Positions 42,429-61,043 of a DNA stretch of 64,000 nt are shown in pieces (positions within the stretch are counted from its first letter, which is position 1; each line of letters opens with the position of its first letter). Under the pieces are notes generated by a model. The model did no database searches, had not been told where the DNA came from, and worked only from the letters and a program-made list of their open reading frames with translations. The translations under genes and the position numbers were made by a program. The DNA comes from an uncultured Erysipelotrichaceae bacterium (GTDB taxonomy: Bacteria > Bacillota_I > Bacilli_A > Erysipelotrichales > Erysipelotrichaceae), in NCBI GenBank assembly GCA_964399545.1, contig CAYNRG010000004.1:16735-80734 (forward strand), in the 5' to 3' direction.

Positions 42429-43313
42429 ATGAAATATCAACGATATAAAGATCAATTGCATCTATTTGATTTAGATCATTTTCATGAAAAGACCATGGAA
42501 TACTTTTTTGAGTTTTACAATATTCCAACAAGGAAAAGAAATCACTTCATTCAGACTTTAACAATTAAGGTGAATGGACAGCGCTGCAACGTAGATCAAG
42601 TTTTAAAAAGAGAAGATCGCATCATCATTTTAAATCAAGAGAAAATTGATATTGATTGCGACTCAACCGCAGCGAAGGTAGTTTATGAGGATGACTTTGT
42701 ATTGGTAGCACACAAAGAAAGTGGAATTTTAATTCACGAAGATAATCCCTCAAAAATAGGAACATTATCTAGTCAAGTAGCTAGGTATTATCAACTCGGC
42801 GGAAAAGAATACTTTGTTCGTCCACTTCATCGATTAGATAAGCAAACTCAAGGTTTGGTTCTTTTTTCCAAATGTTCTTTTTTTCAACCGTGGCTAGATA
42901 GACAGTTAAGGGAAAAAGAAATAAAAAGAGTGTATCTTGCAATTGTTCATGGGAAAATGAAAGTTGGGATAAAGAAAAGAATTCAAAAGCGAATTGGAAG
43001 AGACCGTCATGATTCACGAAAGATGATAATTACAACTAAAGGAAAAGAAGCAACAACTAAAATTCAATGTATAAAATCAACGAAAAACTATTCGCTGATT
43101 TCATGTGAGTTAGAAACAGGGAGAACTCATCAAATTCGTGTTCATTTGGCATCATTGGGCTATCCAATTGTTAATGATGCGTTATATGGAGCCTCTACAA
43201 AAGATTTTCAAGAGATGGGGCTATATGCAGTAAAATTAGAATGGAGAGATCCAATAACGCAAGAAAAAAGAGTCATAAACGACTCTTACTTAAAGGATAT
43301 TGAAATGTTTTAA
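42429..43313 (+). CDS. RluA-family pseudouridine synthase
   Basis: Catalytic motif HRLDKQTQG and the C-terminal ..GRTHQIRVHLA..G.PI.ND..YG. Confidence 0.9.
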   Translation: MKYQRYKDQLHLFDLDHFHEKTMEYFFEFYNIPTRKRNHFIQTLTIKVNGQRCNVDQVLKREDRIIILNQEKIDIDCDSTAAKVVYEDDFVLVAHKESGILIHEDNPSKIGTLSSQVARYYQLGGKEYFVRPLHRLDKQTQGLVLFSKCSFFQPWLDRQLREKEIKRVYLAIVHGKMKVGIKKRIQKRIGRDRHDSRKMIITTKGKEATTKIQCIKSTKNYSLISCELETGRTHQIRVHLASLGYPIVNDALYGASTKDFQEMGLYAVKLEWRDPITQEKRVINDSYLKDIEMF

Positions 43314-44090
43314 AGCATGAACGACTCCATCATCATGGACAGAAGTTGATACAAAATCAGCTTCTTTTTTTACATTGTCTTTTGCATTTCCCATGGCAAC
43401 ACCAATAGCAGATTTGTGGAACATTTGAATATCGTTTGCTGCATCACCAAAAGTCATAACCTCATCCCATTGGTAACCTTTCATTTTTAAATAGGATTCA
43501 ATAGCTGTTGCTTTACTAATAGCGGTAGGATAAACGTCATAACCGTTGGGATAAGACCACCCAAAAGTTAGGTGAGGGAATAAGGGTCTTAGTGCTTCAA
43601 TGGTTGGTTCATCTCCAATAAGAAAACAGCCAAGTGGACAACCGTGTGTAATGTGAAAGTCTTCCTCCTCGGGATTTTCAAAAATAAACGAACCATAATC
43701 ATTATCACCGACATATCCTTTGTAAAATTGAGCGTAATGAGCATATCCGACAATACCTTCTTTAAATTTAAAGCCTAGTCCAATATTCTTTTCATGACAA
43801 AGATCTCTAAGTGTGACTACATCTTCGGAAGTCATTGGATGAGACTGTAAAATCTCTCCTTCCCCACTAACAAGACAACCTCCATTAATGGTTACAAGAT
43901 GAGAAGGGTTTATATCTGTGAATACAGAAGGATGAATGAAGTTGAAATGCCTTCCGGTTGCGATAAGGACATCTAGTCCTTGTTCTTTGGCTTGCTGAAT
44001 GGCATTCTTTACTGCAGGAGAGATGGCTGTTTTACCATAAGGGATTAAAGTGCCATCAATATCAAATGCTAATAGTTTTATACTTTTCAT
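43290..44090 (-). CDS. Cof-type HAD-IIB sugar phosphatase
   Basis: AFDIDGTL, ..ATGR.., ..FGDAANDIQMF... The start is set at MKSIKLL; the longer ORF-track start runs into the tRNA on the other strand. Confidence 0.85.
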   Translation of the reverse strand: MKSIKLLAFDIDGTLIPYGKTAISPAVKNAIQQAKEQGLDVLIATGRHFNFIHPSVFTDINPSHLVTINGGCLVSGEGEILQSHPMTSEDVVTLRDLCHEKNIGLGFKFKEGIVGYAHYAQFYKGYVGDNDYGSFIFENPEEEDFHITHGCPLGCFLIGDEPTIEALRPLFPHLTFGWSYPNGYDVYPTAISKATAIESYLKMKGYQWDEVMTFGDAANDIQMFHKSAIGVAMGNAKDNVKKEADFVSTSVHDDGVVHALKHFNIL

Positions 44091-44157
44091 AAAAATCACC
44101 TCTTTTGTAATTATAGCATGAAAAAAAGAGAAAGATATGTTAAAATAAAAGAGCTGT

Positions 44158-44234
44158 GTGCCCGTGGCGCAATTGGATAGCGCATCTGATTCCGATTCAG
44201 ACGGTTGCAGGTTCAAGTCCTGTCGGGCACGCCA
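44158..44234 (+). tRNA. tRNA-Arg (anticodon CCG)
   Basis: A 77-nt cloverleaf folded by hand: acceptor GTGCCCG/CGGGCAC, D-arm GCGC-AATTGGATA-GCGC, anticodon arm TCTGA-TTCCGAT-TCAGA, T-arm GCAGG-TTCAAGT-CCTGT, and an encoded CCA. Confidence 0.9.
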
Positions 44235-44782: not shown

Positions 44783-45256
44783 ATGAAAGATATAAAAAAA
44801 CTAGTTGAAACAACCGAAATGTTCGCTGAGGCGTATTCGTCTTATGTGAGTGTTTACCATCGTCGCCAAAGAAAATTTTCTCTTTATGAGAAAGAAGCTC
44901 AATTTGTGGTGTTAGTGCACACATTGAAAAAATTGAAAGATGAAATTAATATGATGGATCTTTCAAAAGAGTTACATTTGACACCAGGTGCAATTTCTCA
45001 AACTGCATCACGTGCTGAAAGAAAAGGTTATATCAAGCGCGTTATGTCAAAGAGTGATCGAAGATCAAATATTGTTTTATTAACTAAAAAGGGAGAGAAA
45101 TTCTGCCAAGGTTATGAAGACTATATGTTGTCACTAAATGCTACTCTTAAGAAAACATTGTCAGGGCATAGTGCTCATGATATTAATTCATTTATTGAGA
45201 TTCAAGGGAAATTAGCTAAAATGCTAAGAGAACTTTCTTTAAAAGAAGAAACTTAG
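44783..45256 (+). CDS. MarR-family transcriptional regulator
   Basis: Winged-HTH core (..MMDLSKELHLTPGAISQTASRAERKGYIKRVMSKSDRRSNIVLLTKKGE..). Confidence 0.85.
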   Translation: MKDIKKLVETTEMFAEAYSSYVSVYHRRQRKFSLYEKEAQFVVLVHTLKKLKDEINMMDLSKELHLTPGAISQTASRAERKGYIKRVMSKSDRRSNIVLLTKKGEKFCQGYEDYMLSLNATLKKTLSGHSAHDINSFIEIQGKLAKMLRELSLKEET

Positions 45257-45585
45257 TAGACGACCCAACGATTTAAAAGAAATTATAGAGGAAAAAGTAT
45301 TTGAAATCAAATGCTTTTTTTTATGCAAATTTTAGCAACTCTACTTTGCAATTATATAGTAAAGAGGAGATTAATCAGTTTTCAAAGAGACTACGGTAGA
45401 AATAAGCATTTAGAAATAGTAGTCGTTATTGAGGTGGAAAGGTATAATGTCCTAATTGAAAAACTTTTTTTATGAATGGGTGAAAAGCGTTTGGGAATAG
45501 TTAGAAAAATCTAGATTTTTTTAGGAAAATGGAATAAAGAGGATAATTAATTATCAGCAAGTTATTGCAGGAAAGGAGAATTGAA

Positions 45586-45735
45586 ATGAAAGAAATTTTA
45601 CAAGAATATGGAGGGTTTATTTTATCCATTGTCTTAATTGCGGCATTAATTGCTAGTTTAAAATCAGGGTTTATTGGAAAAATTAATGAAAACATTACCT
45701 CGCAATTAGATAAAATTTCAGAAATAGGAAATTAG
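45586..45735 (+). CDS. Flp-like type IVb (Tad) pilin, 49 aa; not in the supplied ORF track (<60 aa)
   Basis: RBS gaaaggag sits 7 nt upstream. The product is MKEILQEYGGFILSIVLIAALIASLKSGF..., with the Flp-type EYG-hydrophobic-IAALIA core. It is the first gene of an operon containing CpaB/TadA/TadB/TadC-like genes. Confidence 0.65.
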   Translation: MKEILQEYGGFILSIVLIAALIASLKSGFIGKINENITSQLDKISEIGN

Positions 45736-45746
45736 TCTAGCAGTAG

Positions 45747-46142
45747 ATGACAGGATTATTAAAAAGCTATGGTGTTTTTCTTCTAGGAATTTTTTGTTTT
45801 ATTTCTCTAATGCTAATGAATCAAAGGCTGGTTTTAGAGGATGAAATTTTTGAAAGTACAAGGCTGACTCAATATTCTGTAATAGAAAATAATATTTTAC
45901 TAGGAGAATTATTTACGAATAAGAAAGTAGTCATTGCAGCAGAGAATTTACCAGCGGAATGGGTAGCGCAGTTTAGGCTCAATATAAATTTAAAAGGAGA
46001 ATACATTATCGAAATTGTAGGCATCCATGAGGATCCGCCAGCAATTGCGGTTCGTGTTCAAGGTAAGGCGAAAAAGAAATGGAGTCAAGAGGAAATACAG
46101 TTGGACTATACAAGTTTAATTTTAATAGAAGAAGGGCGATGA
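45747..46142 (+). CDS. Pilin-like/pseudopilin-like protein (131 aa) sharing the N-terminal register of the Flp-like pilin
   Basis: MTGLLKSYGVFLLGIFCFISL..: Tyr8-Gly9 and then a hydrophobic helix, as in the 49-aa pilin. It starts 11 nt after the pilin stop. Confidence 0.5.
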   Translation: MTGLLKSYGVFLLGIFCFISLMLMNQRLVLEDEIFESTRLTQYSVIENNILLGELFTNKKVVIAAENLPAEWVAQFRLNINLKGEYIIEIVGIHEDPPAIAVRVQGKAKKKWSQEEIQLDYTSLILIEEGR

Positions 46143-46143
46143 A

Positions 46144-46926
46144 ATGAAAAAGCTAAGGATGAAGAATAAAATCTTATGGACAGTACTTTTAGGGAGTTTG
46201 TTGAGTGGTGGGATTTTGATTACTTTACATCAAACTAAAACAGAAATGGAACAGATGGTAGAGATTCCAGTGGCTTTTAGAAAGATTTCTTCAAGGGAGA
46301 TGATTCAGGAAGAAGATATTGTAATGATTTCGATTCCCAAATATGTGCTTTTAGAGGGAGTTATTATGAGCGAAGAGGAAATCATTGGTCAGTATATTAA
46401 ACCTTATCACTCTGTTGTTGAAAATTCCTTATTTTATAAAGATGCGGTTATTCAAAAGGAAAGAATGAATGATGTGGCTTTATTCACATTGGAGCAAGGC
46501 GAGATTGCAGTGACAATTGAAGCAGATATACAAAGTTCTTATGCTAATTCTATTTTAGTAGGTCACCAAATTGATCTTTATTATTTAGGGCAAGCTCGTT
46601 TGAAGAGCGATGTGGATAAAGTGATTATTCATGGTGAAATTGTCAAAAATGCCAGAGTTATAGCTGTGAAAGATAAAGATGGTCTATCTATAGAAGGCAA
46701 TCAAGAGTTAAAAACAGCAATGATTGTTGTAGCGTTGTCAAAAGAAGACGGTCATCTTGTAGAGATAGCAAAGGCCTTAGGGAAAGTAACACCAATCATT
46801 TCTTATGAAAATTTTAATGAGGGAGAAGAAAGTCAATATTACGACATAGAAAAGATGAAAAATATTCTGTTTGGTAATTCCTTGGATGTAACTATTGAAT
46901 CCATCAATGGAGATCAAGATGAATAG
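46144..46926 (+). CDS. CpaB/RcpC-like Flp pilus assembly protein (N-terminal TM, SAF-like domain)
   Basis: A TM anchor followed by a V.IPVA.R.I....I..ED.....IP pattern typical of SAF/CpaB. It sits immediately before the secretion ATPase. Confidence 0.6.
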   Translation: MKKLRMKNKILWTVLLGSLLSGGILITLHQTKTEMEQMVEIPVAFRKISSREMIQEEDIVMISIPKYVLLEGVIMSEEEIIGQYIKPYHSVVENSLFYKDAVIQKERMNDVALFTLEQGEIAVTIEADIQSSYANSILVGHQIDLYYLGQARLKSDVDKVIIHGEIVKNARVIAVKDKDGLSIEGNQELKTAMIVVALSKEDGHLVEIAKALGKVTPIISYENFNEGEESQYYDIEKMKNILFGNSLDVTIESINGDQDE

Positions 46927-47947
46927 TCAAGGATTTAATCATGTAGATTTTGGAGACTTACAGCAATTTTTAGATTATCCAGATGTTACCGATGTATCTT
47001 GTAAAAATGATGGAGAAGTTTGGTTAACATCGAATGAAAGAGGTCATTATTTATCTGATGTGAAGGTTTATGAAAAGGAAGTAATGCGAATTGCAAGCCA
47101 AATTGCTAATAAAATGCAAAAAGAATTTAATCCAGCAAATCCTAATCTAGAAGGAGATATACAAGGAAAAGAGGAAGATTATCGAGTGGGATGTGTCCAT
47201 CGTCATCTATCTCCTTTTGGAACTACATTGGTAATTAGGAAAGTTCGGAAGAAGTTATTCCTCTCCTATAGTCAATTATTAAGGGACAAAAGTATATCAA
47301 AAGAGGCTTTACATTTATTAATCTTAGCTGTTAAATCTGGAATGAATATGATTTTTATTGGTGAAACTGGCAGTGGAAAAACAGAGTTATTAAAATTTTT
47401 ATCACAATATATTCCAAAAGAGGAAGTTGTGGTGACTATTGAAGATTCTATGGAGTTTAATTTAAATCAACTAATTTCAGATCTTTCTTGTACTGCTTTC
47501 CATCTTCGAGAAGGAGTGACGTATCAGCAGATTGTTGCAATGAGTCTAAGGTTGAATGTCCAAAGAATTTTACTTCAAGAGGCTCGAGGAGAAGAGGTGG
47601 ATGATCTATTAGATGCAATGTCTACTGGGCATACGGTTATGACTACTATGCATGCACGCTCTGTTGAAACTGTGTGTTCAAGAATTAAACAAATGCTAAA
47701 GTCTAGTCAAGAGAGCTATGATCATTTACAAGCAAGAGTATATGGGTTAGTGGATTTAGTAGTTTTTATGGAGAAGGAAAAAACTAAAAAGGGAACGCAT
47801 AGGAAAGTAAAGCAAATTGCTCGGTATCAATATTTTTCAAAAGAAAATAGATGGGAATGTAACTTAGTGTATGACTATAATAAGAAACTTTTCCCCATGT
47901 CTTCCGACTTCATTCAAAAATTAATAAAAGGGAAAAGATATGATTGA
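46919..47947 (+). CDS. TadA/CpaF-like secretion ATPase (T2SSE/VirB11 superfamily), short form
   Basis: Walker A GETGSGKTE, Asp-box/Walker B (..RILLQEARGEE..), His-box (..TGHTVMTTMHA..). The start is set at ATG 46919 behind ggag, overlapping the cpaB-like stop. Confidence 0.8.
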   Translation: MNSQGFNHVDFGDLQQFLDYPDVTDVSCKNDGEVWLTSNERGHYLSDVKVYEKEVMRIASQIANKMQKEFNPANPNLEGDIQGKEEDYRVGCVHRHLSPFGTTLVIRKVRKKLFLSYSQLLRDKSISKEALHLLILAVKSGMNMIFIGETGSGKTELLKFLSQYIPKEEVVVTIEDSMEFNLNQLISDLSCTAFHLREGVTYQQIVAMSLRLNVQRILLQEARGEEVDDLLDAMSTGHTVMTTMHARSVETVCSRIKQMLKSSQESYDHLQARVYGLVDLVVFMEKEKTKKGTHRKVKQIARYQYFSKENRWECNLVYDYNKKLFPMSSDFIQKLIKGKRYD

Positions 47948-48812
47948 AGGAATTATTCTTATCAGCGTATTCCTTTTAGTTTGGGTTTTAATTGGTGGGG
48001 AAAGAGCGGATATTGAAAAGTTAGTAGAGAATAGAGTTGTTCAGGAAACGATGGAGCTATCTTATTTTGGTCAAGAGAAGAAATTGGTCAATATTGGAAG
48101 AAAATATTCTTTAAAACAATACTTCCGAGATAGTTTTAAATTGCTTGTCTTTTTTGGCTTTTTAATCTATAGAACAGTAGATGATCTTTATTTGTCACTT
48201 TGGATATGCGGTGTTATTATCTTTTTTTGGCCATACCTTTATTGCCTAAAAGTCATGAATGAAGAGCAAAGGAAAAAAGAGGAATCAGCATTCATTTATA
48301 GTCAGTCCATCTTAGTTTATCTAAGAGAAAATCGAGTGTCGCAGCAGATTCTTTATCAATGTGTAGAGGTGTTAGAGGGAGCATTTAGAACGGATATTGA
48401 AAAAATGATTTCAGTTGTTGAGCAATCCAATCAATTTTCAAAAGGGCTGAAAATGTTGGAAGATAAGTATCCCTATTCAATGATAAAAAATGTTCATATC
48501 TTACTCTTGGGAAAGAAGGATCAAGGTTCGAGCTATCTTAGTCTAGTAGACTATCTTCAGCAAAGCATAGAAAATCATGAAATTTTGCTAAGAGAATTTT
48601 ATAGAAAGAAAGAAACAAATGAAAAGATGTTCTTTATTATTTGTGGATTAAACTTCATTGCGATATCGATGATTATTAAATTCTTTGTAGGTACATCAGA
48701 GATGAGCCTGGGTATAGGGATTAAAATAGTGTTATCTTGTTTTTATTCTTTAAATTTAATAACTATTGTCCTATATGAACGTTGGTGTTTGACTAAAAAT
48801 CACTTAGATTAG
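47940..48812 (+). CDS. TadB-like inner-membrane platform protein (T2SSF-like)
   Basis: An N-terminal TM helix, a central soluble helical region and C-terminal TM helices. It overlaps the ATPase gene by 8 nt. Position and topology fit TadB; there is no HMM confirmation. Confidence 0.5.
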   Translation: MIEGIILISVFLLVWVLIGGERADIEKLVENRVVQETMELSYFGQEKKLVNIGRKYSLKQYFRDSFKLLVFFGFLIYRTVDDLYLSLWICGVIIFFWPYLYCLKVMNEEQRKKEESAFIYSQSILVYLRENRVSQQILYQCVEVLEGAFRTDIEKMISVVEQSNQFSKGLKMLEDKYPYSMIKNVHILLLGKKDQGSSYLSLVDYLQQSIENHEILLREFYRKKETNEKMFFIICGLNFIAISMIIKFFVGTSEMSLGIGIKIVLSCFYSLNLITIVLYERWCLTKNHLD

Positions 48813-48820
48813 GAGGCTTG

Positions 48821-49582
48821 ATGGGAGTGTTGATTATTTTATGTTGCTTTGGGATTTCTTTTCTATGGACAATGGATCATTATCAGATTAATCAGGAAAT
48901 TCATTGGATAGAAAGTTTGATTATCGAGAAAGATTATTTTAGGATGATTCAATTAACAACAGAGAAAACAAGAAGGAAAGCTCTTATGGAGAGGTTGATT
49001 GTCTCTTTTATTGGTGGAATATTGGCCTTTTTTATTTTTGATGGAGAAATTCGAATTGTTTATTCTGCTATAGTTATTCTTGTTATATATAAAGGGATAT
49101 ACTTATCACTAAAAAAGAAAGTTAAAATTCAATTGGAAATTGCTAAAAATGTTTTTCCTTTCTATCTGAATAATTTATGTATTTTAATTCAAACCAATCC
49201 AGTTCCATTGGCTTTGCAAAAATCGATTCAAATGGCTCCTACTATTTTTAAAGATGATTTAGAAATCTTAGTAAAAGAAATTCATGAGGGTAAAAAGGAA
49301 AGGGTTATTCCATATTTAGAATTTGCTCAAAAGTTTGAACAGATTCCAGATTTGATGAGAATTTATAGAACACTATACTATCTTTCTGTAACTGTTGTTC
49401 AAAAGGAAATGATTTTACTATCTTTATGTAAAATCGCTAATGAAAAATTAGTAGAAGAGAGAAAGCGTAAGCTGGATAATTTTTTGGATCACCAATCGCT
49501 TGTTCCGTGGATTGCTTTTTTATGGGTGGGTCTTGTGATTATTGCTTTGTTTAATTTCGTTCATATACAAGGATTTTTATAA
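48821..49582 (+). CDS. TadC-like inner-membrane platform protein (T2SSF-like)
   Basis: Same topology class as the previous gene, with an aggagg RBS. The start codon is ambiguous (TTG 48818, ATG 48821 or GTG 48827). Confidence 0.5.
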   Translation: MGVLIILCCFGISFLWTMDHYQINQEIHWIESLIIEKDYFRMIQLTTEKTRRKALMERLIVSFIGGILAFFIFDGEIRIVYSAIVILVIYKGIYLSLKKKVKIQLEIAKNVFPFYLNNLCILIQTNPVPLALQKSIQMAPTIFKDDLEILVKEIHEGKKERVIPYLEFAQKFEQIPDLMRIYRTLYYLSVTVVQKEMILLSLCKIANEKLVEERKRKLDNFLDHQSLVPWIAFLWVGLVIIALFNFVHIQGFL

Positions 49583-49583
49583 G

Positions 49584-49946
49584 ATGAAGATGCCAGTTCA
49601 AGTTTATGGGATATTATTTGCTTTTTCTCTTTCAATTTTGGTGTTACCACAAATTTTAAACTATGCAATTTGTTATCGCCAATGTAATAGTGTTGCTATG
49701 TATTTTGTAGATGTTGTCGAGGTCTATGATGGTCTTGAAGAAAGAATAATTTATGAAAAGAAGTTGGAAATGAGTAAGAGATATCCAACAATGGAGATTG
49801 AAATTAACCGGGTAATAATTGATCAGCAATATGTTTCTTATCGCGTGGTATGTAAAAAGAAGTTATCGTTCTCCATTTTGAAATTGGATATTACCGTTCA
49901 AGCTGAAAAGCAATCCAAACGGATTGTAGACTGGAGAAGTGAATGA
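49584..49946 (+). CDS. Pilin-like/pseudopilin-like protein (120 aa) with the same Tyr8-Gly9 N-terminal register
   Basis: MKMPVQVYGILFAFSLSILVL... The ATG lies 1 nt after the tadC-like stop. The ORF-track start at 49542 lies inside the upstream gene. Confidence 0.5.
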   Translation: MKMPVQVYGILFAFSLSILVLPQILNYAICYRQCNSVAMYFVDVVEVYDGLEERIIYEKKLEMSKRYPTMEIEINRVIIDQQYVSYRVVCKKKLSFSILKLDITVQAEKQSKRIVDWRSE

Positions 49947-52528
49947 AAAAGGTTATAGGAATAGGGATAATGTGCGTACTGCTGATTAGTCCTCTTCTAG
50001 GAGAGGAAGAACAATGTAAAGCAATTTTTTTGTACTCTAGAAAAGAGTGGATGAGTCATCAAAATTTGATTGATGTTCCTTTTCAAGGAGGTAAGAACCA
50101 CTTCATTAATTCTAAAGGAGTGCAATTATCTTTAAATGTATTTGGTAGCTTTGCAAATCCAGAAATGGAAGATTCATCGTTTTTGTTGGGAGAAAGAGAA
50201 TTAATTAAAGAAGTGCAGACTAAACAGGGGGATCCTATTGTTTTTTCGATGATTTTTTATCAGAATATAAAAATAGGGGAGCTGGAGTTTGAAATGCAAG
50301 CGATTGATAAAGTGACACAGAAGGTATTGGATAAAAAAATACTTATAAATGTGTCAAGTGTAGATGACTTGTACTCCAACCCAGTCGTAATTCCTTCGAG
50401 CACATTGGGAAAAAGGGAAAAAGTTGATTTAAATAACGCAGAAGTTCGGAATGTATTTATTGCTTTTGAACCTACCCCAAATCCAGTAGAGTATCGTTTA
50501 TCTTATTTTCAAGTTAAAGACTATGCAGTTTATAAGCATATTCAATGGCAGGAAGAGGAAATAAAGAATACAGAAGTTAAACAAGTGATATGGTGTCAAA
50601 AAAACGGGAAATTTAATCCAGATGGGACAGGGAATCAATGGGTGAAAGAAGAGGAAACAGGATTTGGCCCTTCGATCCATTTAATTAGTGATTATATACC
50701 AATTATTAAGGAACAGCATTTTAATTATGATCAAGGAAGAGGATCAACTATAAAAGCCTATTCATTGCCTAAAGAATCCGTCCAGTTGGCTAATTATAAT
50801 GTAGTCATTACTGATTGGCAAACACAAGGAGAAAAGCCTTACCTGACATATTACTCTCTGTATGAAGGGAAAAAGTATAGCCCACTTTCAAAGACAGTGG
50901 GAGTACAATATATAGCAATTCCAGTTTATTGGGATGTGCGGAAAAGAACCCATTATGCATCGGTTTTATCATACAATAAAGACTGGTGTTACCATGTGAG
51001 TGGTAAAAAGGAAATTCCATGTTACAAGCATTTTGGACATTCTTCAGAGGGACGATTAAATTCATATGACATCAAAGTTAATGTTTGGGACCAAGTGGTG
51101 GATCCAGATTATCAAAAAGTAGAAAAAGCAATTTATTCCGTTTATAAAAATGGAGAGAAACAGTTTGAGATACAAGGAAAAGAGGAATTGAAGAGGTTTA
51201 AATTTAATGAAACAGGGATTTGGGAAGTGAAAGCGATTATTTATGATGGTGTGGGGCAACAAGGCGAAGTAAGATCGAAGAAATTTTATATTGACCAAGA
51301 TAAACCAAATATTGAAATTAATAGTAGTATGGAAGAACGGAAATTTAATATTAGAGTTAGTGATGACCACTCAGGGGTGAAGAGATGGTGGTACTTTGTA
51401 TCTAATGATGATGGGGAATCGTATTACTACCAAAGTGATATTTTGACAACGATTGAAGAAACCATTAGGTTAGAAAATCCAGGAGAGTACATTGTTGATG
51501 TTTTTTGTGAGGATCAAGTTGGAAATCTTCAAGAGAAAAGAAGTGAGAGAATAGAGGTTAAAGAGGAGAATATTGTACTCGATAAAGTTTTTGCTCCTGT
51601 ATATGAACAAGGAGTGGAAACTCAGCTCTATGTTCAATATCAGTGTGGTAGTTGTTCTTTTGGAAATCCACAAGAAGTAGCTATTTTTATAGGCGAAGAT
51701 AAGCTAGTTGACGATTGGATAATAACGGATGAATACCGCACTACCTACACTTATCGTACCCGAAATGAGGCTTTTGTAGATATAAGGATAGAAACAAGTC
51801 GTTGGGATAAAACCTTGCGAGTTCATGAAAAGAGTTATCGTCATAAGCAAAGTAACGATGAAGTTAATTTTGATGAAATTGTTGTTAGCTCTTTAGATAG
51901 GCTGGGGAATCAAGTTGACTTTAAAGAGAGAATTCAATTAAAGATTAATCAAGATAAAAAAACTTATTTTTCAGGAGAGGGAATGGAACAAGAAGTTCTT
52001 GTGGACTATAGGAATGAATGCACAGGGTACGAAAGTTTCAACTGTACTCCAAGTGCTTTGCAAGAAAAATGGCAAGGCAGTGCTTCAATGTGGTATGAAG
52101 ATTGTGCTTACCCATTAAATCAAGAGCGAAAAGTAGAGGACAAATATAGGACGAATCTAGAATTTGAAAATGGTAAATATCAGTTACCTATTCTATATCT
52201 TCATCCTCGAACAGGATTTGTATATGATAAAGAAACTCTAGATTTGATGGATGGTGGAAGAAGGTGGTACTCTAATCCAAAGTCATCACAAGGTGAGTAT
52301 TCAGTGGAGGCTAAAGGGGAACAGTTAGGAGTTAATCAAGTGAGTTGGATACTAAAAACAGTGTATGAGATTGACCAAAGCTATAAGGAGAAGTATCATA
52401 TTCGATTTTTCCATCAGAAAGAACCTTTTCCAAAAGGGATGAGTACATGGTGGGAGAAGAGTAAGGAATGGATAGAGAATCTTAGATTAGAAAATCCAGT
52501 TTTTTCAACTGAAATTAGGAGTGATTAG
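49943..52528 (+). CDS. Large secreted protein (861 aa), function unknown; putative pilus-associated adhesin
   Basis: ATGA overlap with the upstream gene and a hydrophobic N-terminal signal (MKKVIGIGIMCVLLISPLLG). The sequence is rich in beta-strand-prone and aromatic residues, and one Ig-like-looking segment (..NIRVSDDHSGVKRWWYFVSNDDG..) is present. No catalytic motif was recognised. Confidence 0.6.
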   Translation: MKKVIGIGIMCVLLISPLLGEEEQCKAIFLYSRKEWMSHQNLIDVPFQGGKNHFINSKGVQLSLNVFGSFANPEMEDSSFLLGERELIKEVQTKQGDPIVFSMIFYQNIKIGELEFEMQAIDKVTQKVLDKKILINVSSVDDLYSNPVVIPSSTLGKREKVDLNNAEVRNVFIAFEPTPNPVEYRLSYFQVKDYAVYKHIQWQEEEIKNTEVKQVIWCQKNGKFNPDGTGNQWVKEEETGFGPSIHLISDYIPIIKEQHFNYDQGRGSTIKAYSLPKESVQLANYNVVITDWQTQGEKPYLTYYSLYEGKKYSPLSKTVGVQYIAIPVYWDVRKRTHYASVLSYNKDWCYHVSGKKEIPCYKHFGHSSEGRLNSYDIKVNVWDQVVDPDYQKVEKAIYSVYKNGEKQFEIQGKEELKRFKFNETGIWEVKAIIYDGVGQQGEVRSKKFYIDQDKPNIEINSSMEERKFNIRVSDDHSGVKRWWYFVSNDDGESYYYQSDILTTIEETIRLENPGEYIVDVFCEDQVGNLQEKRSERIEVKEENIVLDKVFAPVYEQGVETQLYVQYQCGSCSFGNPQEVAIFIGEDKLVDDWIITDEYRTTYTYRTRNEAFVDIRIETSRWDKTLRVHEKSYRHKQSNDEVNFDEIVVSSLDRLGNQVDFKERIQLKINQDKKTYFSGEGMEQEVLVDYRNECTGYESFNCTPSALQEKWQGSASMWYEDCAYPLNQERKVEDKYRTNLEFENGKYQLPILYLHPRTGFVYDKETLDLMDGGRRWYSNPKSSQGEYSVEAKGEQLGVNQVSWILKTVYEIDQSYKEKYHIRFFHQKEPFPKGMSTWWEKSKEWIENLRLENPVFSTEIRSD

Positions 52529-52546
52529 ATTCACTCTCTTTTTTTG
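52518..52546 (+). terminator. Rho-independent terminator ending the Tad-like operon
   Basis: ggagtga-ttagat-tcactct followed by cttttttt. It overlaps the stop codon. Confidence 0.75.
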
Positions 52547-52590
52547 AAGTGCAGAACATGGTATGATAAGAGAAATAGGCGGTGAATTAA

Positions 52591-53679
52591 ATGAAGATTT
52601 TGGTTACTGGATCCAGTGGATTCATTGGAAAGAATTTATGTTTATCATTAGAGTATCAAGGGTATGAGGTTTATCGGTTTGATGTTGACAATACAAAATC
52701 GGAACTAAGAATGATGATCAAAAACTGTGATTTTATTATGCATTTAGCAGGGATTAATCGTCCACTAGCACCTGAAGAGTTTTATGATGGAAATGTTCGA
52801 TTGACACAATGGTTGGTCCAAATTATTGAAGAAGAAAGAAAAACTGTACCTCTTTTATTTAGCTCGACAATTCAAGCAGAGCAGTTTAATGATTATGGAA
52901 AAAGCAAGCGTCAAGCAGAGGAGGTTGTTTCCGAATATGCACTGAGAACAGGGAGTGATATCTTTATCTATCGGTTAGCGAATGCTTTTGGGAAATGGTG
53001 TCGCCCTAACTATAATTCTCAAGTAGCAACTTTTTGTCATATGGTAGCAAATGATTTAGATTTTAAAGTTACAGTACCTAATGCGATTGTGCCATTAGTT
53101 TATATTGATGATATTGTTCATTCATTTATGACATGTATTGGTAAGCCGGGAAGCATGGAGGTTCAAGAAGTTGATCCTACCTATAAAATCTCAGTAGGGA
53201 AGCTAGCAGATACAATTAAGTCCTTTAAAGATTATCGAGAAAATAAAAGGATTCAATATGATAAAAGCGAGTTAGAAAGAAAACTATACACGACATATTT
53301 AAGCTATGTACCAGAAGAGAAACTGATAGGATCATTAGGCTGGGAAGTAGACGCATATGATTTCTTAAAAAGTGATTCTTTTGGTAAGCTATCTATACGT
53401 TATTTACAACCAGGTGAAGTTTCTGGAAATCATTGGCATGGGAAAAGAAGTGAACGATATGTAGTAGTAGCGGGATGTGGAAAAATGAAGATGCGCCGAA
53501 TAGGGAGTGAACAAATAATTGAACATCACTTATCTAGGGAAAAGATTCAGGTTGTTGATATTCCGGTAGGTTATGTGCATTCTATTGAAAATATAGGAGA
53601 TAGTGAGCTGGTTCTTTTAGTTTGGTCTGAAGCATATGAGCATGATCGAAACAGTGATATTTTTGAAGAGCAGGTGTAG
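52591..53679 (+). CDS. CapF-like bifunctional SDR/cupin enzyme (UDP-6-deoxy-hexosamine pathway reductase/epimerase)
   Basis: N-terminal GSSGFIGKN Rossmann motif and ..YG.SK.. with GKWCRPNYNS..ATFC. C-terminal cupin region ..GNHWH.., ..VVDIPVGYVHSIENIGD... It is collinear with S. aureus CapF as remembered. Confidence 0.8.
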   Translation: MKILVTGSSGFIGKNLCLSLEYQGYEVYRFDVDNTKSELRMMIKNCDFIMHLAGINRPLAPEEFYDGNVRLTQWLVQIIEEERKTVPLLFSSTIQAEQFNDYGKSKRQAEEVVSEYALRTGSDIFIYRLANAFGKWCRPNYNSQVATFCHMVANDLDFKVTVPNAIVPLVYIDDIVHSFMTCIGKPGSMEVQEVDPTYKISVGKLADTIKSFKDYRENKRIQYDKSELERKLYTTYLSYVPEEKLIGSLGWEVDAYDFLKSDSFGKLSIRYLQPGEVSGNHWHGKRSERYVVVAGCGKMKMRRIGSEQIIEHHLSREKIQVVDIPVGYVHSIENIGDSELVLLVWSEAYEHDRNSDIFEEQV

Positions 53680-53704
53680 CTTGAGAGTCTAAATAGGAGT
53701 GGTG

Positions 53705-55855
53705 ATGAGCATGAAAAAGATATTAGTAGGATTAATGGCCTTTTTAGTAATAGGAATGTCGTGGCGATTTGTTTTTAATAACAAGAAAGATAAAACACAG
53801 GAAGAGGCATCTATTTTAGAGACGACAGTTCCAGAGACGAAAGAAGTAGTTTTTCCAATTGATAATGAATCGAAATTTGAAACAGCTTGGGAATTTGAAG
53901 CTCCAATGGGTGTGACAAGAGAATCAACATATATCACTCAAACGATCTCTATCCAACAAGAAGCCCATGAAGGAGAAATTATTCTTCAAAAGAAAGGGTT
54001 ATTATGGCAAGAAGATGAAGAGTATACGTTTTCAGCATTTTTTGATAGTGATTCAGAAATCGCTTTAAAAATAGATGTATTCTTTTCAGAAGGAGATCTT
54101 TTTTATTCAGAAGAGCTTGAATTTCAAGGGAATACAGAAGTTAAATTTTCGTTAAAAAGTACTAAAACTAACGATTGGAATGGTTTCATTCAAATTAAGA
54201 TGACACCTAAAGAAGCTCAAACTATTGTCATGAACGAGTTTCGAATTATTGAGAATAATCCAAAGGGATCTGTGATTCGATTGAATCACTTGGGGTATCT
54301 TGAAAATGAGAGAAAACGAGTTATTTTCCCATATAATCAAGGTGATTTCTTTGATGTGGTTCGAGTGGAAGATCAGAAAATTGTATATACTGGTGCTATT
54401 GTTGAAGAGAGGTGGAATGAAAGTGCTCAGGAAAGAAATTATAGAGGTGATTTTAGCTCTGTTCAAACTCCTGGGAAATATATTCTTCGCTCTCAAAGTC
54501 TAGGATCATCGTATGAGTTTGAAATTACGGATAATATTTATGAGGAAGTTGCGAAAGATGCACTTAAAATGATTTCCTTACAGCGCTGTGGATCAGATTT
54601 AGCTCAATCTTGGGCTGGAAATTTTGCTCATGAAGCATGTCACATAGAAGAAGCCCATATTTATGATGCTCAACCTCATAAGTTAGATGTACGAGGAGGG
54701 TGGCATGATGCAGGAGACTACGGGCGATATGTAGAAACAGGTGCGAAGACAGCCTTTGACTTATTATTTGCATATCAACGATTTCCAAACAAATTTACAG
54801 ATGAAGTTGGAATTGCGGAAAGCGCCAATGGAATTCCAGATATTTTAGATGAAGTTCGTTATGAACTGGAATGGCTTTTAAAGTTACAAACAGATTGGGG
54901 TGGAGTTTATAACAAAGTAACAACACCATTTTTTGCAGATGATATTTTACCGGAAGAGGATAAAGATGAGTTATATATTCTCCAAGTAGAAACGATGACT
55001 ACAGGAGATTTTGCTGCTGTCATGGCCATGGCTTCAATGATTTATGAAGAATATGATGCTGATTTTGCAAAACAGTGCTTAGAAGCTTCTAAAAAAGCTT
55101 GGGATAATTTAAATGGAACTTATAAAGTAGTAGACTATGGGAACCCAGGTGACTTTATGACTGGAAGTTATCGTGATGGAAATGATAGTGACGAGAGATT
55201 CTTTGCAAGTATAGCATTATGGAGTGCAACTCAAGAGGAGGGATATCTGAATTATGCAAAAGAAGTGTTAGAATCGGATTACCGAGCAGCCGAAGGAGTT
55301 AGTTGGAGTGAAGTTGGGGCTTATGGAGCATATCTTTTTCTAAGTCAAGAAGAGGCGAGAGAACATGAATATTTTTATGGAAAAGTTCTTGAAAATCTTC
55401 AAGGACAAGTTGGTAAAATTGTTGCTTTAATTGAATCAGATGCTTATTTTACTTCTTTGGAAAATTATTCTTGGGGTAGTAATGGGAAAGTACTGAATCA
55501 TGCGATTATATTATTGATGATGTCTGATTTAGAAGGAAATGAATATTATCGTGAGTTGGCAGCTGAACAACTTAATTATATTTTTGGAAGGAACACCTTA
55601 GATTTATCTTTTGTTAGTGGATATGGGTATAAGTTTCCGGAAAATCCGCATCATCGGATTGCGAAGATAAAAAAATCCTTGTTAAAAGGAGCCTTAGTTG
55701 GTGGAGTTAATAGTGACCGTGATGATGGAATAATGCAGCAGATTCAACGGCCAATAGCAAGTATGTATTTGGATCAATATGAGAGTTATTCCACAAATGA
55801 GGTAACTATTTATTGGAATTCTGCCTTAGTTTATGTGTTAAGTTATTTCAGATAA
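53705..55855 (+). CDS. Glycoside hydrolase family 9, membrane-anchored, with N-terminal CBM-like and Ig-like (CelD_N) modules
   Basis: GH9 signature DVRGGWHDAGDYGRY, ..DILDEVRYELEWLLKLQ.., and C-terminal ..YSTNEVTIYWNSAL... One N-terminal TM helix. The start codon is ambiguous (53699, 53705 or 53711). Confidence 0.85.
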   Translation: MSMKKILVGLMAFLVIGMSWRFVFNNKKDKTQEEASILETTVPETKEVVFPIDNESKFETAWEFEAPMGVTRESTYITQTISIQQEAHEGEIILQKKGLLWQEDEEYTFSAFFDSDSEIALKIDVFFSEGDLFYSEELEFQGNTEVKFSLKSTKTNDWNGFIQIKMTPKEAQTIVMNEFRIIENNPKGSVIRLNHLGYLENERKRVIFPYNQGDFFDVVRVEDQKIVYTGAIVEERWNESAQERNYRGDFSSVQTPGKYILRSQSLGSSYEFEITDNIYEEVAKDALKMISLQRCGSDLAQSWAGNFAHEACHIEEAHIYDAQPHKLDVRGGWHDAGDYGRYVETGAKTAFDLLFAYQRFPNKFTDEVGIAESANGIPDILDEVRYELEWLLKLQTDWGGVYNKVTTPFFADDILPEEDKDELYILQVETMTTGDFAAVMAMASMIYEEYDADFAKQCLEASKKAWDNLNGTYKVVDYGNPGDFMTGSYRDGNDSDERFFASIALWSATQEEGYLNYAKEVLESDYRAAEGVSWSEVGAYGAYLFLSQEEAREHEYFYGKVLENLQGQVGKIVALIESDAYFTSLENYSWGSNGKVLNHAIILLMMSDLEGNEYYRELAAEQLNYIFGRNTLDLSFVSGYGYKFPENPHHRIAKIKKSLLKGALVGGVNSDRDDGIMQQIQRPIASMYLDQYESYSTNEVTIYWNSALVYVLSYFR

Positions 55856-55920
55856 AATATACTTTAATTGCATGAGGAATCATACGCTTTGACAACAGGT
55901 GTAGATTTACTTGCTGTATA

Positions 55921-55971
55921 TGAAAAAATGCTCTTGGCTATTTGAGTAATCAAATAACAATGGAGCATTTT
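55921..55971. terminator. Bidirectional terminator between GH9 and the convergent HAD gene
   Basis: aaaaaatgctc...gagcattttt outer stem with an inner tatttga/tcaaata pairing. Confidence 0.6.
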
Positions 55972-55977
55972 TATGTT

Positions 55978-56547
55978 CTACTTTTTAGATTTATTCCAAG
56001 GGTGTAAGGTATGTCCTTTTACAAGAAACGCTTGTTTTGATAACTTAGCTAAAGGATCATCGGAGTAAGAATCTGAGTAGAAAGAATGAACATCTTCTCG
56101 TCGATAAAACTCATCAAAACGCCGAACTTTCTCTGTTCCATAGCAATTTCTTCCCTGATAGGCTCCTGTGTTTTTATTTACTGGTGAGGCCATCCAATGA
56201 GTAATATTTAATTTCTGGCAGAAGGCACCAATTAAAAACTCAGGCGAAGCTGAAATGATTAAGTCATCAGGCTGTTGTTGGCTTAAGTACCACGGTTTGA
56301 TATTTTTTAGGTGAGAGACAACAAAGTCTTCAATCACTAAGTCAATAGAGTCAATCGCTTTTAGGAAAGAGAATAATCTTTCCTTGAATTGCTGTTTTTT
56401 CTTAAGCCTTACTACAAATAAAAGACCATTGAGAAGATGAACAGGAATTTCCTTGTAAAGGGAAGGTTGTTTTTTTAAGCAATAAAAGATAAAGTCAACG
56501 GTACAATCTCCATCATAGATTGTTTTATCAAAATCATAAACATTCAT
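55978..56547 (-). CDS. HAD-IB family hydrolase (SerB-like phosphatase fold)
   Basis: The DFDKT motif I lies right after the start (MNVYDFDKTIYDGD), followed by ..ISASP.. and ..YSDSYSD.PL... The start is set at ATG 56547 behind gaggtga. Confidence 0.7.
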   Translation of the reverse strand: MNVYDFDKTIYDGDCTVDFIFYCLKKQPSLYKEIPVHLLNGLLFVVRLKKKQQFKERLFSFLKAIDSIDLVIEDFVVSHLKNIKPWYLSQQQPDDLIISASPEFLIGAFCQKLNITHWMASPVNKNTGAYQGRNCYGTEKVRRFDEFYRREDVHSFYSDSYSDDPLAKLSKQAFLVKGHTLHPWNKSKK

Positions 56548-56765
56548 AAATTTCACCTCTGTTATACTTATTTTATAGCAAAACATGGAATAAGAAAAGA
56601 AAAAGTAAGAGACTTTTAGATAAAAGACAATTTAGTTAACTATCATTTCCTTAAAGGATACTACTTTCATCAAGCTAGTATTGGACATGAATGTTATTTT
56701 ATGAAAGATTCATCAAAGGGATAAGCGATTTTTAAGTGCTAAAATAATTCCTGTTCAATGGGTGA

Positions 56766-56801
56766 TAAAAAAACTCGAAACCATAGTATAATGTTCCGAG
56801 T
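56766..56801 (-). terminator. Rho-independent terminator after the GT-C-like gene
   Basis: The minus strand reads ctcggaac-attatactatg-gtttcgag followed by ttttttt. Confidence 0.7.
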
Positions 56802-56808
56802 GAATAGG

Positions 56809-58317
56809 TTAGTTTTCCGGCCAATAAAAGATTAATTTCATGTCGGGATTCAAGTTATAGTATTCTTTAAATACTTCTTGGTGATAGACATCATCATCTT
56901 CTACATCGGCAGAATGGATAGTCATAATCGGCATTCGCTGAATCCACGCTTCAGGTGTTTCAGGGTTCTCTTGAAGCCAATGGATCCGCTCTAGGCGTTG
57001 TTGATTAACGGTGTTAACCAGTTTGTATTTATCGTAGTACTTCTTGGACCACAATAGACAAAGAAGTAAAAGAGCGATAAATATGCCTTTTTCTAGTGTA
57101 GCGTGAACGATAGAACGATTATAGAAAATACCAATCAAAAGAATGAAAATATAAATCATATAGATGCTACTACGTGGTCCGAAGATAGGAGAGAAAAGCA
57201 TGACAATGTTGGCACTTCCTCCTACAAGAACAAGGAAACTGGCAATTAGTCGATTCTCTTCGTCAAGGAAGCTCAAGATTATCCAAAATAAGGTTAATAA
57301 ATAAACTGTAAAGAAAGTAGTGATAAATATTTCTCCTCCAGGGTAGTTTAAATCGAATAATAGTCGAAGTGCCTCCCAGTGAAGTTTGCTATAAAGAAAA
57401 GAAGCCATACTTTGAAAAGCGCCAAGAGAAAGAATACTGCCTAGAATCCATAAATGCCAAGCTTTTCTTCTGTAGTCAAAACGTCGAGTATAAATGAAAA
57501 GGAGAAGAACTAAGCTTAAAATTAAAATAAGATACTTATTGTCCAAGAATGTATAAGTTAAGAAATTTTGCCAATTGGCTTGTATTTTTTCGAAAATAGA
57601 TAATCCTAACCAAAGACTATGCTCATTCATCAAGCGATAACTTGCTCCAGGAGAAAGTCTTAATATAGCAAATCCTATGCAACTAACTAAGAGAAACCCG
57701 AGTCCAATTTTTAGTTTCTTTTTGTCGCTAAAATGGAAGTAAAGTGATAATAGAATATTGGATAAAATCAGAGTTGTTGCTATGTTTTCCATCCAAAGAG
57801 GGATGATGATATTTAAAGCGAAACCGGCAATAATTAATCCCGTTTGTTTGTTCCAGTCAAATAATAGGATTTTAATAATATACAAATAGAGCAAATAAAG
57901 AAAGAGTGGAACGATATAAGTTGTTCCCATAATCCATGTGTAGGTTTCCATACGAACATAGTCTTTTACAGAAAGCATCAAAAATAAGATGAGTAGTAAT
58001 AAGCTGACTTGCTTTGCTTTGGGGTTGATAATCTTAAAAATAAGAAAAGCTATTCCAGTAAAGAGTAATGGATTTAAGATGTTCCATAACCATTTATTTG
58101 GTGCTACAACGAAACCCCAAAACTCACTAAAGATTCGACCGGACCAAGAAAAGTAAAATTGATAGGTAAGTTCAAAAGGGTTTCCTTTCATACCATTTAG
58201 TGCATATCCCCAATCGTCTCCTGCAAGAGGGGTCCAATAGGAAATTAGTGCAAAAAGGAGGAAAAAACCTAGGAATAATAATGAGATGAAGAGATTATTT
58301 TTTTTATTTTTTAGCAT
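56809..58317 (-). CDS. Polytopic membrane protein, GT-C-type glycosyltransferase candidate (DUF6056-like)
   Basis: About 13 TM helices and an early extracytoplasmic acidic motif (..TPLAGDDWGY..) of the kind used by GT-C enzymes. It lies directly downstream of a GtrA-family gene. The start is set at ATG 58317 behind gaggtgg. Confidence 0.5.
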   Translation of the reverse strand: MLKNKKNNLFISLLFLGFFLLFALISYWTPLAGDDWGYALNGMKGNPFELTYQFYFSWSGRIFSEFWGFVVAPNKWLWNILNPLLFTGIAFLIFKIINPKAKQVSLLLLILFLMLSVKDYVRMETYTWIMGTTYIVPLFLYLLYLYIIKILLFDWNKQTGLIIAGFALNIIIPLWMENIATTLILSNILLSLYFHFSDKKKLKIGLGFLLVSCIGFAILRLSPGASYRLMNEHSLWLGLSIFEKIQANWQNFLTYTFLDNKYLILILSLVLLLFIYTRRFDYRRKAWHLWILGSILSLGAFQSMASFLYSKLHWEALRLLFDLNYPGGEIFITTFFTVYLLTLFWIILSFLDEENRLIASFLVLVGGSANIVMLFSPIFGPRSSIYMIYIFILLIGIFYNRSIVHATLEKGIFIALLLLCLLWSKKYYDKYKLVNTVNQQRLERIHWLQENPETPEAWIQRMPIMTIHSADVEDDDVYHQEVFKEYYNLNPDMKLIFYWPEN

Positions 58318-58327
58318 AATGACCACC

Positions 58328-58738: not shown

Positions 58739-58876
58739 GAGCAATACTCCTTATCTTAGATATTATATCATAAATACTATTGAAGAAAATATAGCTTTTG
58801 GAGTAAAAGTTGAAATCTCTTTGTAAAGAGTTTAAAAGGAGACATTTTTTTGATATAATTAAACATGGTGATAAAA

Positions 58877-60983: not shown

Positions 60984-61043
60984 AAAGATTAAAAATAGGT
61001 GGAAGGAATTTATTCAAAAGAAAGCACGGATGAGGTGAGGGAG

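Follow-up and report, generated by a model that had tools for sequence, protein, structure and literature searches.

A compact Tad-like operon of Erysipelotrichaceae with leaderless pilin-like proteins and relatives on Gram-positive conjugative plasmids

The 64,000-nucleotide stretch of an uncultured Erysipelotrichaceae bacterium analysed here (contig CAYNRG010000004.1; the whole stretch is termed the window) contains a block of eight genes, G1 to G8, that encodes components reminiscent of a Tad/Flp pilus machine together with a large secreted protein. The three pilin-like genes of this cassette, G1, G2 and G7, encode no leader at all, a feature that was missed by an earlier note on this DNA. 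Type IV filaments are generally thought to need pilins with a class III signal peptide as well as a dedicated prepilin peptidase. We lean, with somewhat better than even confidence, towards the reading that the cassette encodes a type IV filament machine of Tad descent that dispenses with a prepilin peptidase and displays the secreted protein G8 as an adhesin.

The earlier note had described a compact eight-gene operon closed by a terminator. Eight co-oriented open reading frames (ORFs) were re-found on the + strand at exactly the same coordinates (45586-52528), with junctions of +11, +1, -8, -8, +8, +1 and -4 nucleotides in order from G1 to G8, and the lengths of G4 to G8 are identical in the public record of the contig. 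Likewise, a hairpin at 52518-52537, which overlaps the stop codon of G8 and is followed by a T-run, is the sole terminator-like site between positions 44200 and 52700, as compared to a mean of 3.3 such sites in the shuffled region. The sequence examined comprised the 64 kb of the source genome and 20-kb pieces of related genomes; the genes of the window and of the flanks were mostly read by eye, and scans with hidden Markov models (HMMs) were performed on selected genes. The operon consists of the following features:

45586-45735, + strand: G1, 49 aa, Flp-like major pilin candidate without a leader (MKEILQEYGGFILSIVLIAALI...)
45747-46142, + strand: G2, 131 aa, DUF5411, minor-pilin-like (MTGLLKSYGVFLLGIF...)
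46144-46926, + strand: G3, 260 aa, bitopic, RcpC/CpaB-like
46919-47947, + strand: G4, 342 aa, core-only secretion ATPase of the CpaF/TadA type
47940-48812, + strand: G5, 290 aa, putative polytopic platform protein, TadB-like by fold
48821-49582, + strand: G6, 253 aa, putative polytopic platform protein, TadC-like
49584-49946, + strand: G7, 120 aa, minor-pilin-like, remotely DUF4320-like (MKMPVQVYGILFAFSL...)
49943-52528, + strand: G8, 861 aa, Sec-secreted, no wall or membrane anchor, C-terminal PXO2_28_C domain
52518-52547, + strand: terminator-like hairpin and T-run that closes the operon

N-termini of the pilin-like proteins and the search for a peptidase

The canonical processing motif of Flp and TadE proteins is G/XXXXEY. 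In G1 the XXXXEY part is present, with E-Y at positions 7-8, and it is preceded by M-K only (by M-S, M-T or M-G elsewhere). Neither a leader peptide nor a Gly(-1) for an A24 peptidase is found in G1, G2 or G7, and this position is taken by Lys, Ser or Thr instead. In the window and in almost all related loci (numbered with the prefix L), the start codon of each of the three genes is located exactly seven codons before the sequence [Y/F/W]-G, with a hydrophobic helix coming next, as exemplified by MKEILQEYGGFIL (variant MKAFFEEYGLII) for G1, MTGLLKSYGVFLL for G2 and MKMPVQVYGILFA for G7; the exceptions are a few orthologues of G2 and G7 with another called start or with a different residue behind the aromatic one. 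The in-frame sequence upstream of these starts is short and not conserved, and a stop codon immediately precedes the ATG of G1 in L006 and L023, of G2 in the window, L007 and L019, and of G7 in L006, L013 and L014. Moreover, a search of all six frames of the window for the start pattern M-x6-[Y/F]-G gave only three occurrences, exactly at G1, G2 and G7.

A single transmembrane (TM) helix spans residues 12-30 of G1. Its start sequence MK-x4-E-[Y/F]-G is kept in 21 of 21 loci, with ATG as start codon in 20 and TTG in L022, and a Shine-Dalgarno (SD)-like site lies 5-12 nucleotides upstream of the start in all 21. A longer G1 starting from a TTG at position 45565 was considered and rejected, as the SD sequence AGGAG belongs to the ATG at 45586 and the codons upstream are not conserved. 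What stands of the earlier description of G1 as a Flp-like pilin is the E-Y-G motif with the adjoining hydrophobic helix, whereas no Pfam or NCBIfam model matched the protein, including the Flp_Fap and Flp1_like HMMs. No other product of the cassette is as well conserved as G1, which shows an amino acid identity of 86-94% versus 56-67% for the ATPase in the same loci, and its ratio of non-synonymous to synonymous substitution rates of about 0.02-0.05 is a rough value, since synonymous sites are at or near saturation. Such strong constraint is not what one would expect of a major pilin exposed at the surface, and it points to tight packing or a buried fibre.

G2 matches Pfam DUF5411 with an E-value of 5e-21, and model positions 1-130 correspond to residues 1-127, so that the first position of the family model falls on the first residue of the protein. 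Both G2 and G7 contain an N-terminal TM helix (residues 7-25 in G7), and their N-termini align with each other (hhalign 88.7%). G7, which has no Pfam or NCBIfam match, starts with M-x6-[Y/F/W]-G like G1 and G2. The TadE model (PF07811), by which the earlier note had proposed to verify the pilin-like proteins, matched neither G2 nor G7, and their hhalign comparison with clostridial TadE was not significant.

As the earlier note had claimed, neither a prepilin peptidase nor TadZ was found in the window. A motif search in all six frames revealed no A24 peptidase, and inspection of the ORFs gave the same result: the scanned polytopic membrane ORFs correspond to DUF624, ECF-S, TauE, ABC-2, DUF6056 and O-antigen ligase proteins, none of them to A24, and three further scanned membrane ORFs, one of 219 aa (23611-24270) and two small ones, match no family. 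No ParA-like TadZ was noticed in the window, whose genes were mostly inspected by eye, in the cassettes of relatives or within 10 kb of them. The earlier note had also considered that both genes could be encoded immediately outside the window; no A24 peptidase and no TadZ were found within 10 kb of the 19 related loci. A conserved neighbouring peptidase was likewise rejected, as the flanks vary and the candidate membrane ORFs are transporters or belong to no family. In contrast, a canonical clostridial Tad locus (L027), which was reached via a more distant homologue of the ATPase, encodes Peptidase_A24, Flp1_like, TadE, two T2SSF proteins and a TadZ-like protein in cis, and its Flp shows a normal leader ending in Gly.

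The earlier note's proposal of a compact operon of the Tad-like kind in a monoderm, coding for a type IV filament, was corroborated. Because G1, G2 and G7 encode no leader, the missing peptidase probably reflects more than reduction or a gene sited elsewhere, and the leaderless design of the pilin genes would explain why no prepilin peptidase is encoded nearby.

Components of the putative machine and the secreted protein

The assignment of G4 as a short ATPase of the TadA/CpaF type was confirmed by a match to Pfam T2SSE (PF00437) with an E-value of 3.9e-30. When the family profile was compared with solved structures, Caulobacter CpaF scored best with 130.8 bits, followed by archaeal GspE (111.7), VirB11 (97.7) and FlaI (93.8). 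Residues 8-302 of the query align to positions 145-438 of the 501 residues of CpaF, which indicates that G4, with its 342 residues, keeps the core N- and C-terminal domains and lacks the N-terminal extension of CpaF of approximately 145 aa, in agreement with the earlier remark that an ATPase of about 340 aa leaves little room ahead of the core. The Walker A motif GETGSGKT is invariant throughout the family. G3, which had been described as CpaB/RcpC-like, contains an N-terminal TM helix (residues 10-28) and matches Pfam RcpC (PF16976) with an E-value of 4e-7 and 30.4 bits, above the gathering score of 28.8; the match to the CpaB model TIGR03177 (8e-12) stays under the cut-off of that model.

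We accept G5 and G6 as platform proteins on the basis of predicted fold, topology, paralogy and position beside the ATPase. Both show a TadB/TadC-like layout, in which TM helices at the two ends (residues 1-19, 85-103, 232-250 and 259-277 in G5) enclose a helical cytoplasmic domain of about 130 aa, and hhalign identifies them as paralogues (93.7%, E = 1.8e-7). The AlphaFold2 model of G5, with a predicted local distance difference test (pLDDT) score of 66, matched the N-terminal domain of PilC best among PDB structures (2whn; probability 0.99, TMt, i.e. the TM-score normalised to the target, 0.63), followed by the cytoplasmic domains of EpsF (2vmb, 0.98; 3c1q, 0.93; 2vma), OutF and SpoIIIAB; the probabilities for PilC, EpsF and OutF range from 0.77 to 0.99. 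For the model of G6 (pLDDT 76.6), SpoIIIAB was the sole structurally meaningful match in the PDB (6bs9; probability 0.8, TMt 0.6); the soluble domain of SpoIIIAB has a GspF-like fold (PMC10790770).

On the sequence level, neither G5 nor G6 was matched by any Pfam or NCBIfam model. A full HMMER search with the G6 profile collected 452 representative clusters, including fused proteins of approximately 500 aa. PF00482 (T2SSF) was the most recurrent weak Pfam match among the remote relatives of G6 (8 of 76, best E-value 0.003), and the deep profile of the G6 superfamily aligned with clostridial TadB over the T2SSF domain (hhalign 63.6%, E = 6.8e-5). The narrow profiles of G5, G6, G1, G2 and G7 yielded nothing significant in hhalign comparisons with the single Tad proteins of L027, and comparison of the PDB with sequence profiles for G5, for G6 and its superfamily, and for G8 gave no meaningful match.

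The proposal of an 861-aa secreted protein at the end of the operon holds: the sole hydrophobic segment of G8 is a Sec-type, signal-like N-terminal helix (residues 1-19), and the protein lacks an anchor. G8 gave no match in the Pfam and NCBIfam scans made here, while PF27438 (PXO2_28_C) is on record for exactly the G8 gene of the window and its orthologue in Anaerorhabdus furcosa. Orthologues of G8 show weak Ig-like matches (Big_3_4, Big_13, PKD). Moreover, the C-terminal approximately 250 aa are homologous to the C-termini of an 849-aa protein of pHT73 (2.3e-22), the Tie adhesin of a pLS20-family plasmid (2e-12) and a thioester adhesin of Listeria (5e-15), and tblastn with this domain yielded matches in 151 plasmids, 149 of them from Bacillus. 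G8 is a candidate adhesin.

Compared with the Tad/Flp loci of Aggregatibacter (tad), Caulobacter (cpa) and the clostridial locus L027, the cassette shares the CpaF-type ATPase, the RcpC/CpaB-like protein and a pair of platform paralogues with a single domain each, along with a tiny pilin that has E-Y-G and a hydrophobic helix and further pilin-like subunits with the same N-terminus. Its gene order is collinear with flp-rcpC-tadA-tadB-tadC-tadE-like, minus tadV, the secretin genes, tadZ and tadD. However, it differs in its pilins without leader and Gly(-1), in the absence of A24 peptidase and TadZ in cis, and in the ATPase shortened by the N-terminal approximately 145 aa. In addition, the T2SSF, Flp and TadE HMMs fail to recognise its platform and pilin proteins, and it adds a DUF5411 subunit and a dedicated secreted protein with PXO2_28_C.

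Related loci, conjugative plasmids and genomic surroundings

A scan of the genome collection with the ATPase family revealed 19 loci, all of them in Erysipelotrichaceae (Anaerorhabdus, Holdemania and uncultured relatives). The best match of the window ATPase among the scanned GTDB representatives was 67% identical (Anaerorhabdus sp.), and all eight genes are intact down to an ATPase identity of about 40%. G1 to G8 are found in identical order in the 19 related loci, with one exception in Holdemania filiformis. Because this order recurs in the related loci, and because G1 is conserved to the extent given above at near-saturated synonymous sites, the eight-gene block represents more than a chance arrangement. 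In the exceptional locus (L017:12685-16712, H. filiformis DSM 12042), no G7 was detected and G8 is divided between ORFs of 452 and 657 aa, which could be due to decay of the adhesin end or to a sequencing error.

The flanks of the cassette differ, with pheST on the 3′ side in five loci and unrelated neighbours elsewhere. Most related loci look chromosomal, as judged by pheST, MarR and glycine-cleavage genes, whereas only the locus L001 is found in the context of a mobile element. This divergent cassette (L001:5751-21020, Holdemania massiliensis GCA_022440805), with the pilin start MKAFFEEYG and an extra 278-aa gene between G7 and G8, is flanked by ParA/ParB-like genes and by ArdC-N/MPTase-PolyVal and TrbL_4 genes, and it probably resides on an integrative element. 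Some genomes harbor two copies of the cassette, namely the metagenome-assembled genomes (MAGs) CAYLQY01 (L010 and L023) and CAMQTJ01 (L014 and L016); the copies in CAYLQY01 have different pilin types (MKEILQEYGG and MKAFFEEYGL), while both copies in CAMQTJ01 are of the MKE type.

Two compact loci of uncultured Bacillota, L025 (8838-13328) and L026 (4181-8418), encode an ATPase of 320-347 aa (30-32% identity) and one fused platform protein of 446-490 aa that is homologous to G5 plus G6 (1e-43). They contain four to six small ORFs, all of which start with MK-x4/5-[Y/F/M]-G/V followed by a hydrophobic helix (MKAFMEEYG, MKSFIEEYG, MKEFFEEYG, MKVWIGEYG). Since neither a leader on these pilins nor an A24 peptidase in cis was found, the leaderless design extends beyond the eight-gene cassette. 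Apart from the fused platform, these loci differ from the cassette in that they contain no RcpC, no Pfam match to DUF5411 and no PXO2_28_C protein; they terminate in an NlpC/P60 protein, as in L025, or a Flg_new protein.

Sequence comparison further shows that the cassette is no isolated oddity, as it has relatives on the plasmids pLS20, pHT73 and pLM5578. It is homologous to the p34-p41 block of pLS20, which comprises the adhesin Tie, p36, the 'putative VirB11' p37 and p38-p41. In comparisons with small local sets (Z = 1000 for the pLS20 family and pHT73), which the E-values reflect, G4 matched p37 (4.4e-57), G5 p38 (1.8e-4), G6 p39 (2.4e-14) and G7 p40 (6.8e-6) of a pLS20-family plasmid. In Listeria pLM5578 the platform proteins (3.7e-12 and 1.4e-7) and a G7-like ORF of 118 aa (2.3e-10) were found, and in pHT73 DUF5411 (1.9e-8), a 263-aa RcpC-like protein (2.8e-34), the two platforms (8.7e-11 and 8.7e-21) and DUF4320 (1.3e-4). 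Detection of the DUF5411 protein of pHT73 required a profile, and tblastn of the plasmids with G2 yielded nothing. Protein sizes and TM topologies of the cassette agree with those tabulated for p37-p40 (PMC8557374), in a table that gives p37 as 'putative VirB11' and enters p36 and p38-p41 as 'Unknown'. The tra region of pAW63/pXO2 shows an equal size pattern around 'VirB11'.

The pLS20-type block thus shares with the cassette the ATPase, both platforms, the G7-like protein, the C-terminal domain of the adhesin and the local gene order. However, the plasmid blocks adjoin a type IV secretion system (T4SS) and a relaxase, whereas the context of the window cassette is chromosomal; the adhesin gene is located upstream on the plasmids, in contrast to the downstream position of G8; the plasmid ATPases are longer (402-485 aa versus 342 aa for G4); and pLS20-type blocks lack CpaB. 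The module of pHT73 (L029:11140-11955) is fuller and comprises DUF5411, RcpC-like, AAA_31, a 485-aa ATPase, two platforms and DUF4320. Its extra ParA/TadZ-like AAA_31 ATPase lies between the RcpC-like gene and the ATPase, with a Tcp-type T4SS directly 3′ of the block, and the module gives the impression of a transitional form that links canonical Tad loci to the reduced cassette.

Among the proteins of the plasmid block, function was tested for Tie only, which is required for efficient mating of pLS20 in liquid (PMC8092201). Tie contains no LPXTG motif, lipobox or wall-binding module, and the approximately 250 aa at its C-terminus are suspected to keep it attached to the cell (PMC8092201). Conjugative elements of Gram-positive bacteria are said to form no pili (PMC8557374), and we found no paper in the literature that ties the genes of the pLS20-type block to a Tad-like machine.

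The earlier note had regarded the operon as the best candidate for an uncharacterised system in the window. It is indeed uncharacterised, but not unique: besides the plasmid homologues, related operons were flagged computationally in 2022. In this nearest earlier account, Miller et al. predicted for Roseburia, Ruminococcus and Eubacterium a 'secretion-related' operon of 8-9 genes that includes CpaF, PilC/GspF and DUF5411 (PMC9523054). These operons belong to another class, the Clostridia, and their likeness to the cassette, as set by description, consists of DUF5411 and CpaF; leaderless pilins and the link to plasmids were not reported there (PMC9523054).

In the window, two genes that the earlier note had placed ahead of the operon were found as described:

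44158-44234, + strand: tRNA-Arg(CCG)
44783-45256, + strand: MarR-family regulator, directly 5′ of the operon (Pfam MarR_2, 1.3e-8)

The product of the MarR gene is a possible regulator of the operon, although the association is weak: a MarR orthologue lies 5′ of the cassette in the window, L006 and L013 only, and the other loci lack it. The longest ORF of a HAD/Cof-type hydrolase (43290-44216, - strand) overlaps the tRNA-Arg gene on the + strand, and an internal ATG (MKSIKLLAFDIDGT...) is its probable true start. Directly 3′ of the operon, a surface-polysaccharide cluster (52591-63607) encodes a secreted protein of 718 aa, DUF6056, apparent glycosyltransferases and proteins that resemble an epimerase, GtrA and O-antigen ligase, with HMM confirmation for DUF6056 and the ligase only. 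The genes for the 718-aa, DUF6056 and GtrA-like proteins and one further gene of this cluster are syntenic with L006 and L013. Elsewhere in the window (8770-11226), an 818-aa secreted protein shows acidic repeats near its N-terminus (EENLDDEILEENE...), followed by Gly/Asn-rich, beta-helix-like repeats.

G+C content and skew of the block are the same as in the rest of the window. A recent horizontal transfer of the window copy was rejected, as composition fits the surroundings and no integrase or conjugation gene was noticed. Likewise, no VirB4, VirD4, VirB6/8-like protein or relaxase was recognised in the window, mostly by eye, or in most related flanks, and neither the window copy nor most related loci are located inside the conjugation operon of a plasmid or of an integrative and conjugative element.

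Proposed mechanism and alternative explanations

In the mechanism that we propose, the pilins G1, G2 and G7 would insert into the membrane with the N-terminus inside. The N-terminal amine together with Lys2 would act as the positive-inside signal that replaces the leader, and since both would supply what the leader normally provides, cleavage of the pilins would not be needed. Through G5 and G6, the ATPase G4 would extract membrane-embedded G1 and assemble it into a thin Flp-like fibre, which G2 and G7 may prime or cap and which a ring of G3 may guide across the wall. G8 would dock on the fibre via PXO2_28_C and serve as an adhesin. The chromosomal copy in Anaerorhabdus and Holdemania would mediate adhesion to hosts or other cells, while the plasmid block of pLS20 and pHT73 would present the mating adhesin. 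Extended to these relatives, the model would describe a lineage of type IV filaments that has neither class III signal peptides nor a prepilin peptidase and that, on pLS20, pHT73, pXO2/pAW63 and pLM80, would form the long-denied conjugation pilus of Gram-positive bacteria, carrying the Tie-type mating adhesin via PXO2_28_C. We put this extension forward as a tentative possibility that falls short of being probable.

Several observations weigh against a peptidase-independent filament machine. The system is known from its genes alone, with assembly and the docking of G8 deduced from them. G1 shows no significant hhalign similarity to the clostridial Flp of L027, and PF00482 matches neither G5 nor G6 nor any of 17 orthologues of G6. 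Of the TadB/TadC-like platform pair proposed in the earlier note, the remote evidence and the predicted fold therefore stand, whereas the check with the T2SSF HMM failed for both proteins. Moreover, the Foldseek E-values of G5 and G6 are weak (0.5-2; the matched domains are small), the confidence of the models is moderate, and they were built on shallow alignments of seven sequences; word-indexed searches with G6 and with G5 and G6 mixed gave three and five proteins, respectively. The small proteins of the plasmids lack the MK..EYG motif, so that the analogy holds less well for the pilins than for the machine. The absence of a peptidase from a locus is in itself not unusual, as the loci of mannose-sensitive haemagglutinin (MSH) pili also lack one in cis and borrow it (PMC6668835). 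Finally, an A24 peptidase such as ComC may be encoded elsewhere in the genome, or another protease could trim the N-terminus.

Among the alternatives, a pseudopilus-type device for secretion or wall crossing, similar to the type II secretion system (T2SS) or Com, survives best, although we regard it as unlikely. In such a device, G8 or some other cargo would be pushed or released across the thick wall by a short fibre that stays internal, and no external adhesive pilus would arise. The machine parts would be the same as in the pilus model, G8 is exported by Sec and lacks an anchor, 'secretion-related' is the label that Miller et al. gave to the clostridial DUF5411 operon (PMC9523054), and the compact locus L025 has a wall hydrolase of the NlpC/P60 type at its end. 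However, the C-terminal domain is common to otherwise unlike adhesins with thioester or Ig-like domains, which suits docking better than a secretion signal. On the present results, this device and the pilus are inseparable.

It is rather improbable that the cassette belongs to, or was left stranded by, a conjugative T4SS of the Gram-positive kind, in which G4 would serve as the VirB11 of a DNA channel, the role annotated for pLS20 gene 37, and no filament would be formed. Homologous blocks head the conjugation operons of the pLS20 family, pHT73, pAW63/pXO2 and pLM5578, L001 in Holdemania is bordered by ParA/ParB and by ArdC-N/TrbL_4 genes, and the best NCBIfam matches of G4, all of them far under the equivalog cut-offs, include 'conjugal transfer-associated TadA' and VirB11. 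However, the G4 family scores markedly higher with CpaF than with VirB11 (130.8 versus 97.7 bits), and VirB11 has no platform partners of the GspF/PilC fold, no CpaB and no EYG-type pilins. Moreover, no relaxase or conjugation gene was recognised in most flanks, L001 being the only mobile-element-like case, and the eight genes stay intact over the range of ATPase identity given above.

An ordinary Tad/Flp operon whose peptidase, and perhaps TadZ, is encoded elsewhere and whose pilins are processed in trans as thought for MSH pili (PMC6668835) is quite improbable: Erysipelotrichales can hold canonical tad and comG loci with tadV, as in Bulleidia (PMC12786226), and the peptidase search covered the window and the 10-kb flanks rather than whole genomes, but the pilin-like proteins contain nothing to remove, given their starts exactly seven codons before [Y/F]G, the stop codons directly upstream in several loci and Lys, Ser or Thr in place of Gly(-1), and the canonical Bacillota Tad locus L027 looks otherwise and is recognised by the HMMs.

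If the model of a filament machine without prepilin peptidase is true, a conserved lineage that encodes already "mature" pilins would break the prepilin rule and reveal a minimal list of filament parts in a monoderm. It would likewise provide a testable answer to the role of the pLS20 genes 36-41, including the "VirB11" p37, and to the question of how the anchorless Tie stays on the surface of the donor (PMC8092201, PMC8557374). The genetics of pLS20 in Bacillus subtilis are tractable, which opens the hypothesis to direct testing. For the gut Erysipelotrichaceae Holdemania and Anaerorhabdus, the cassette would then be a probable adhesion organelle.

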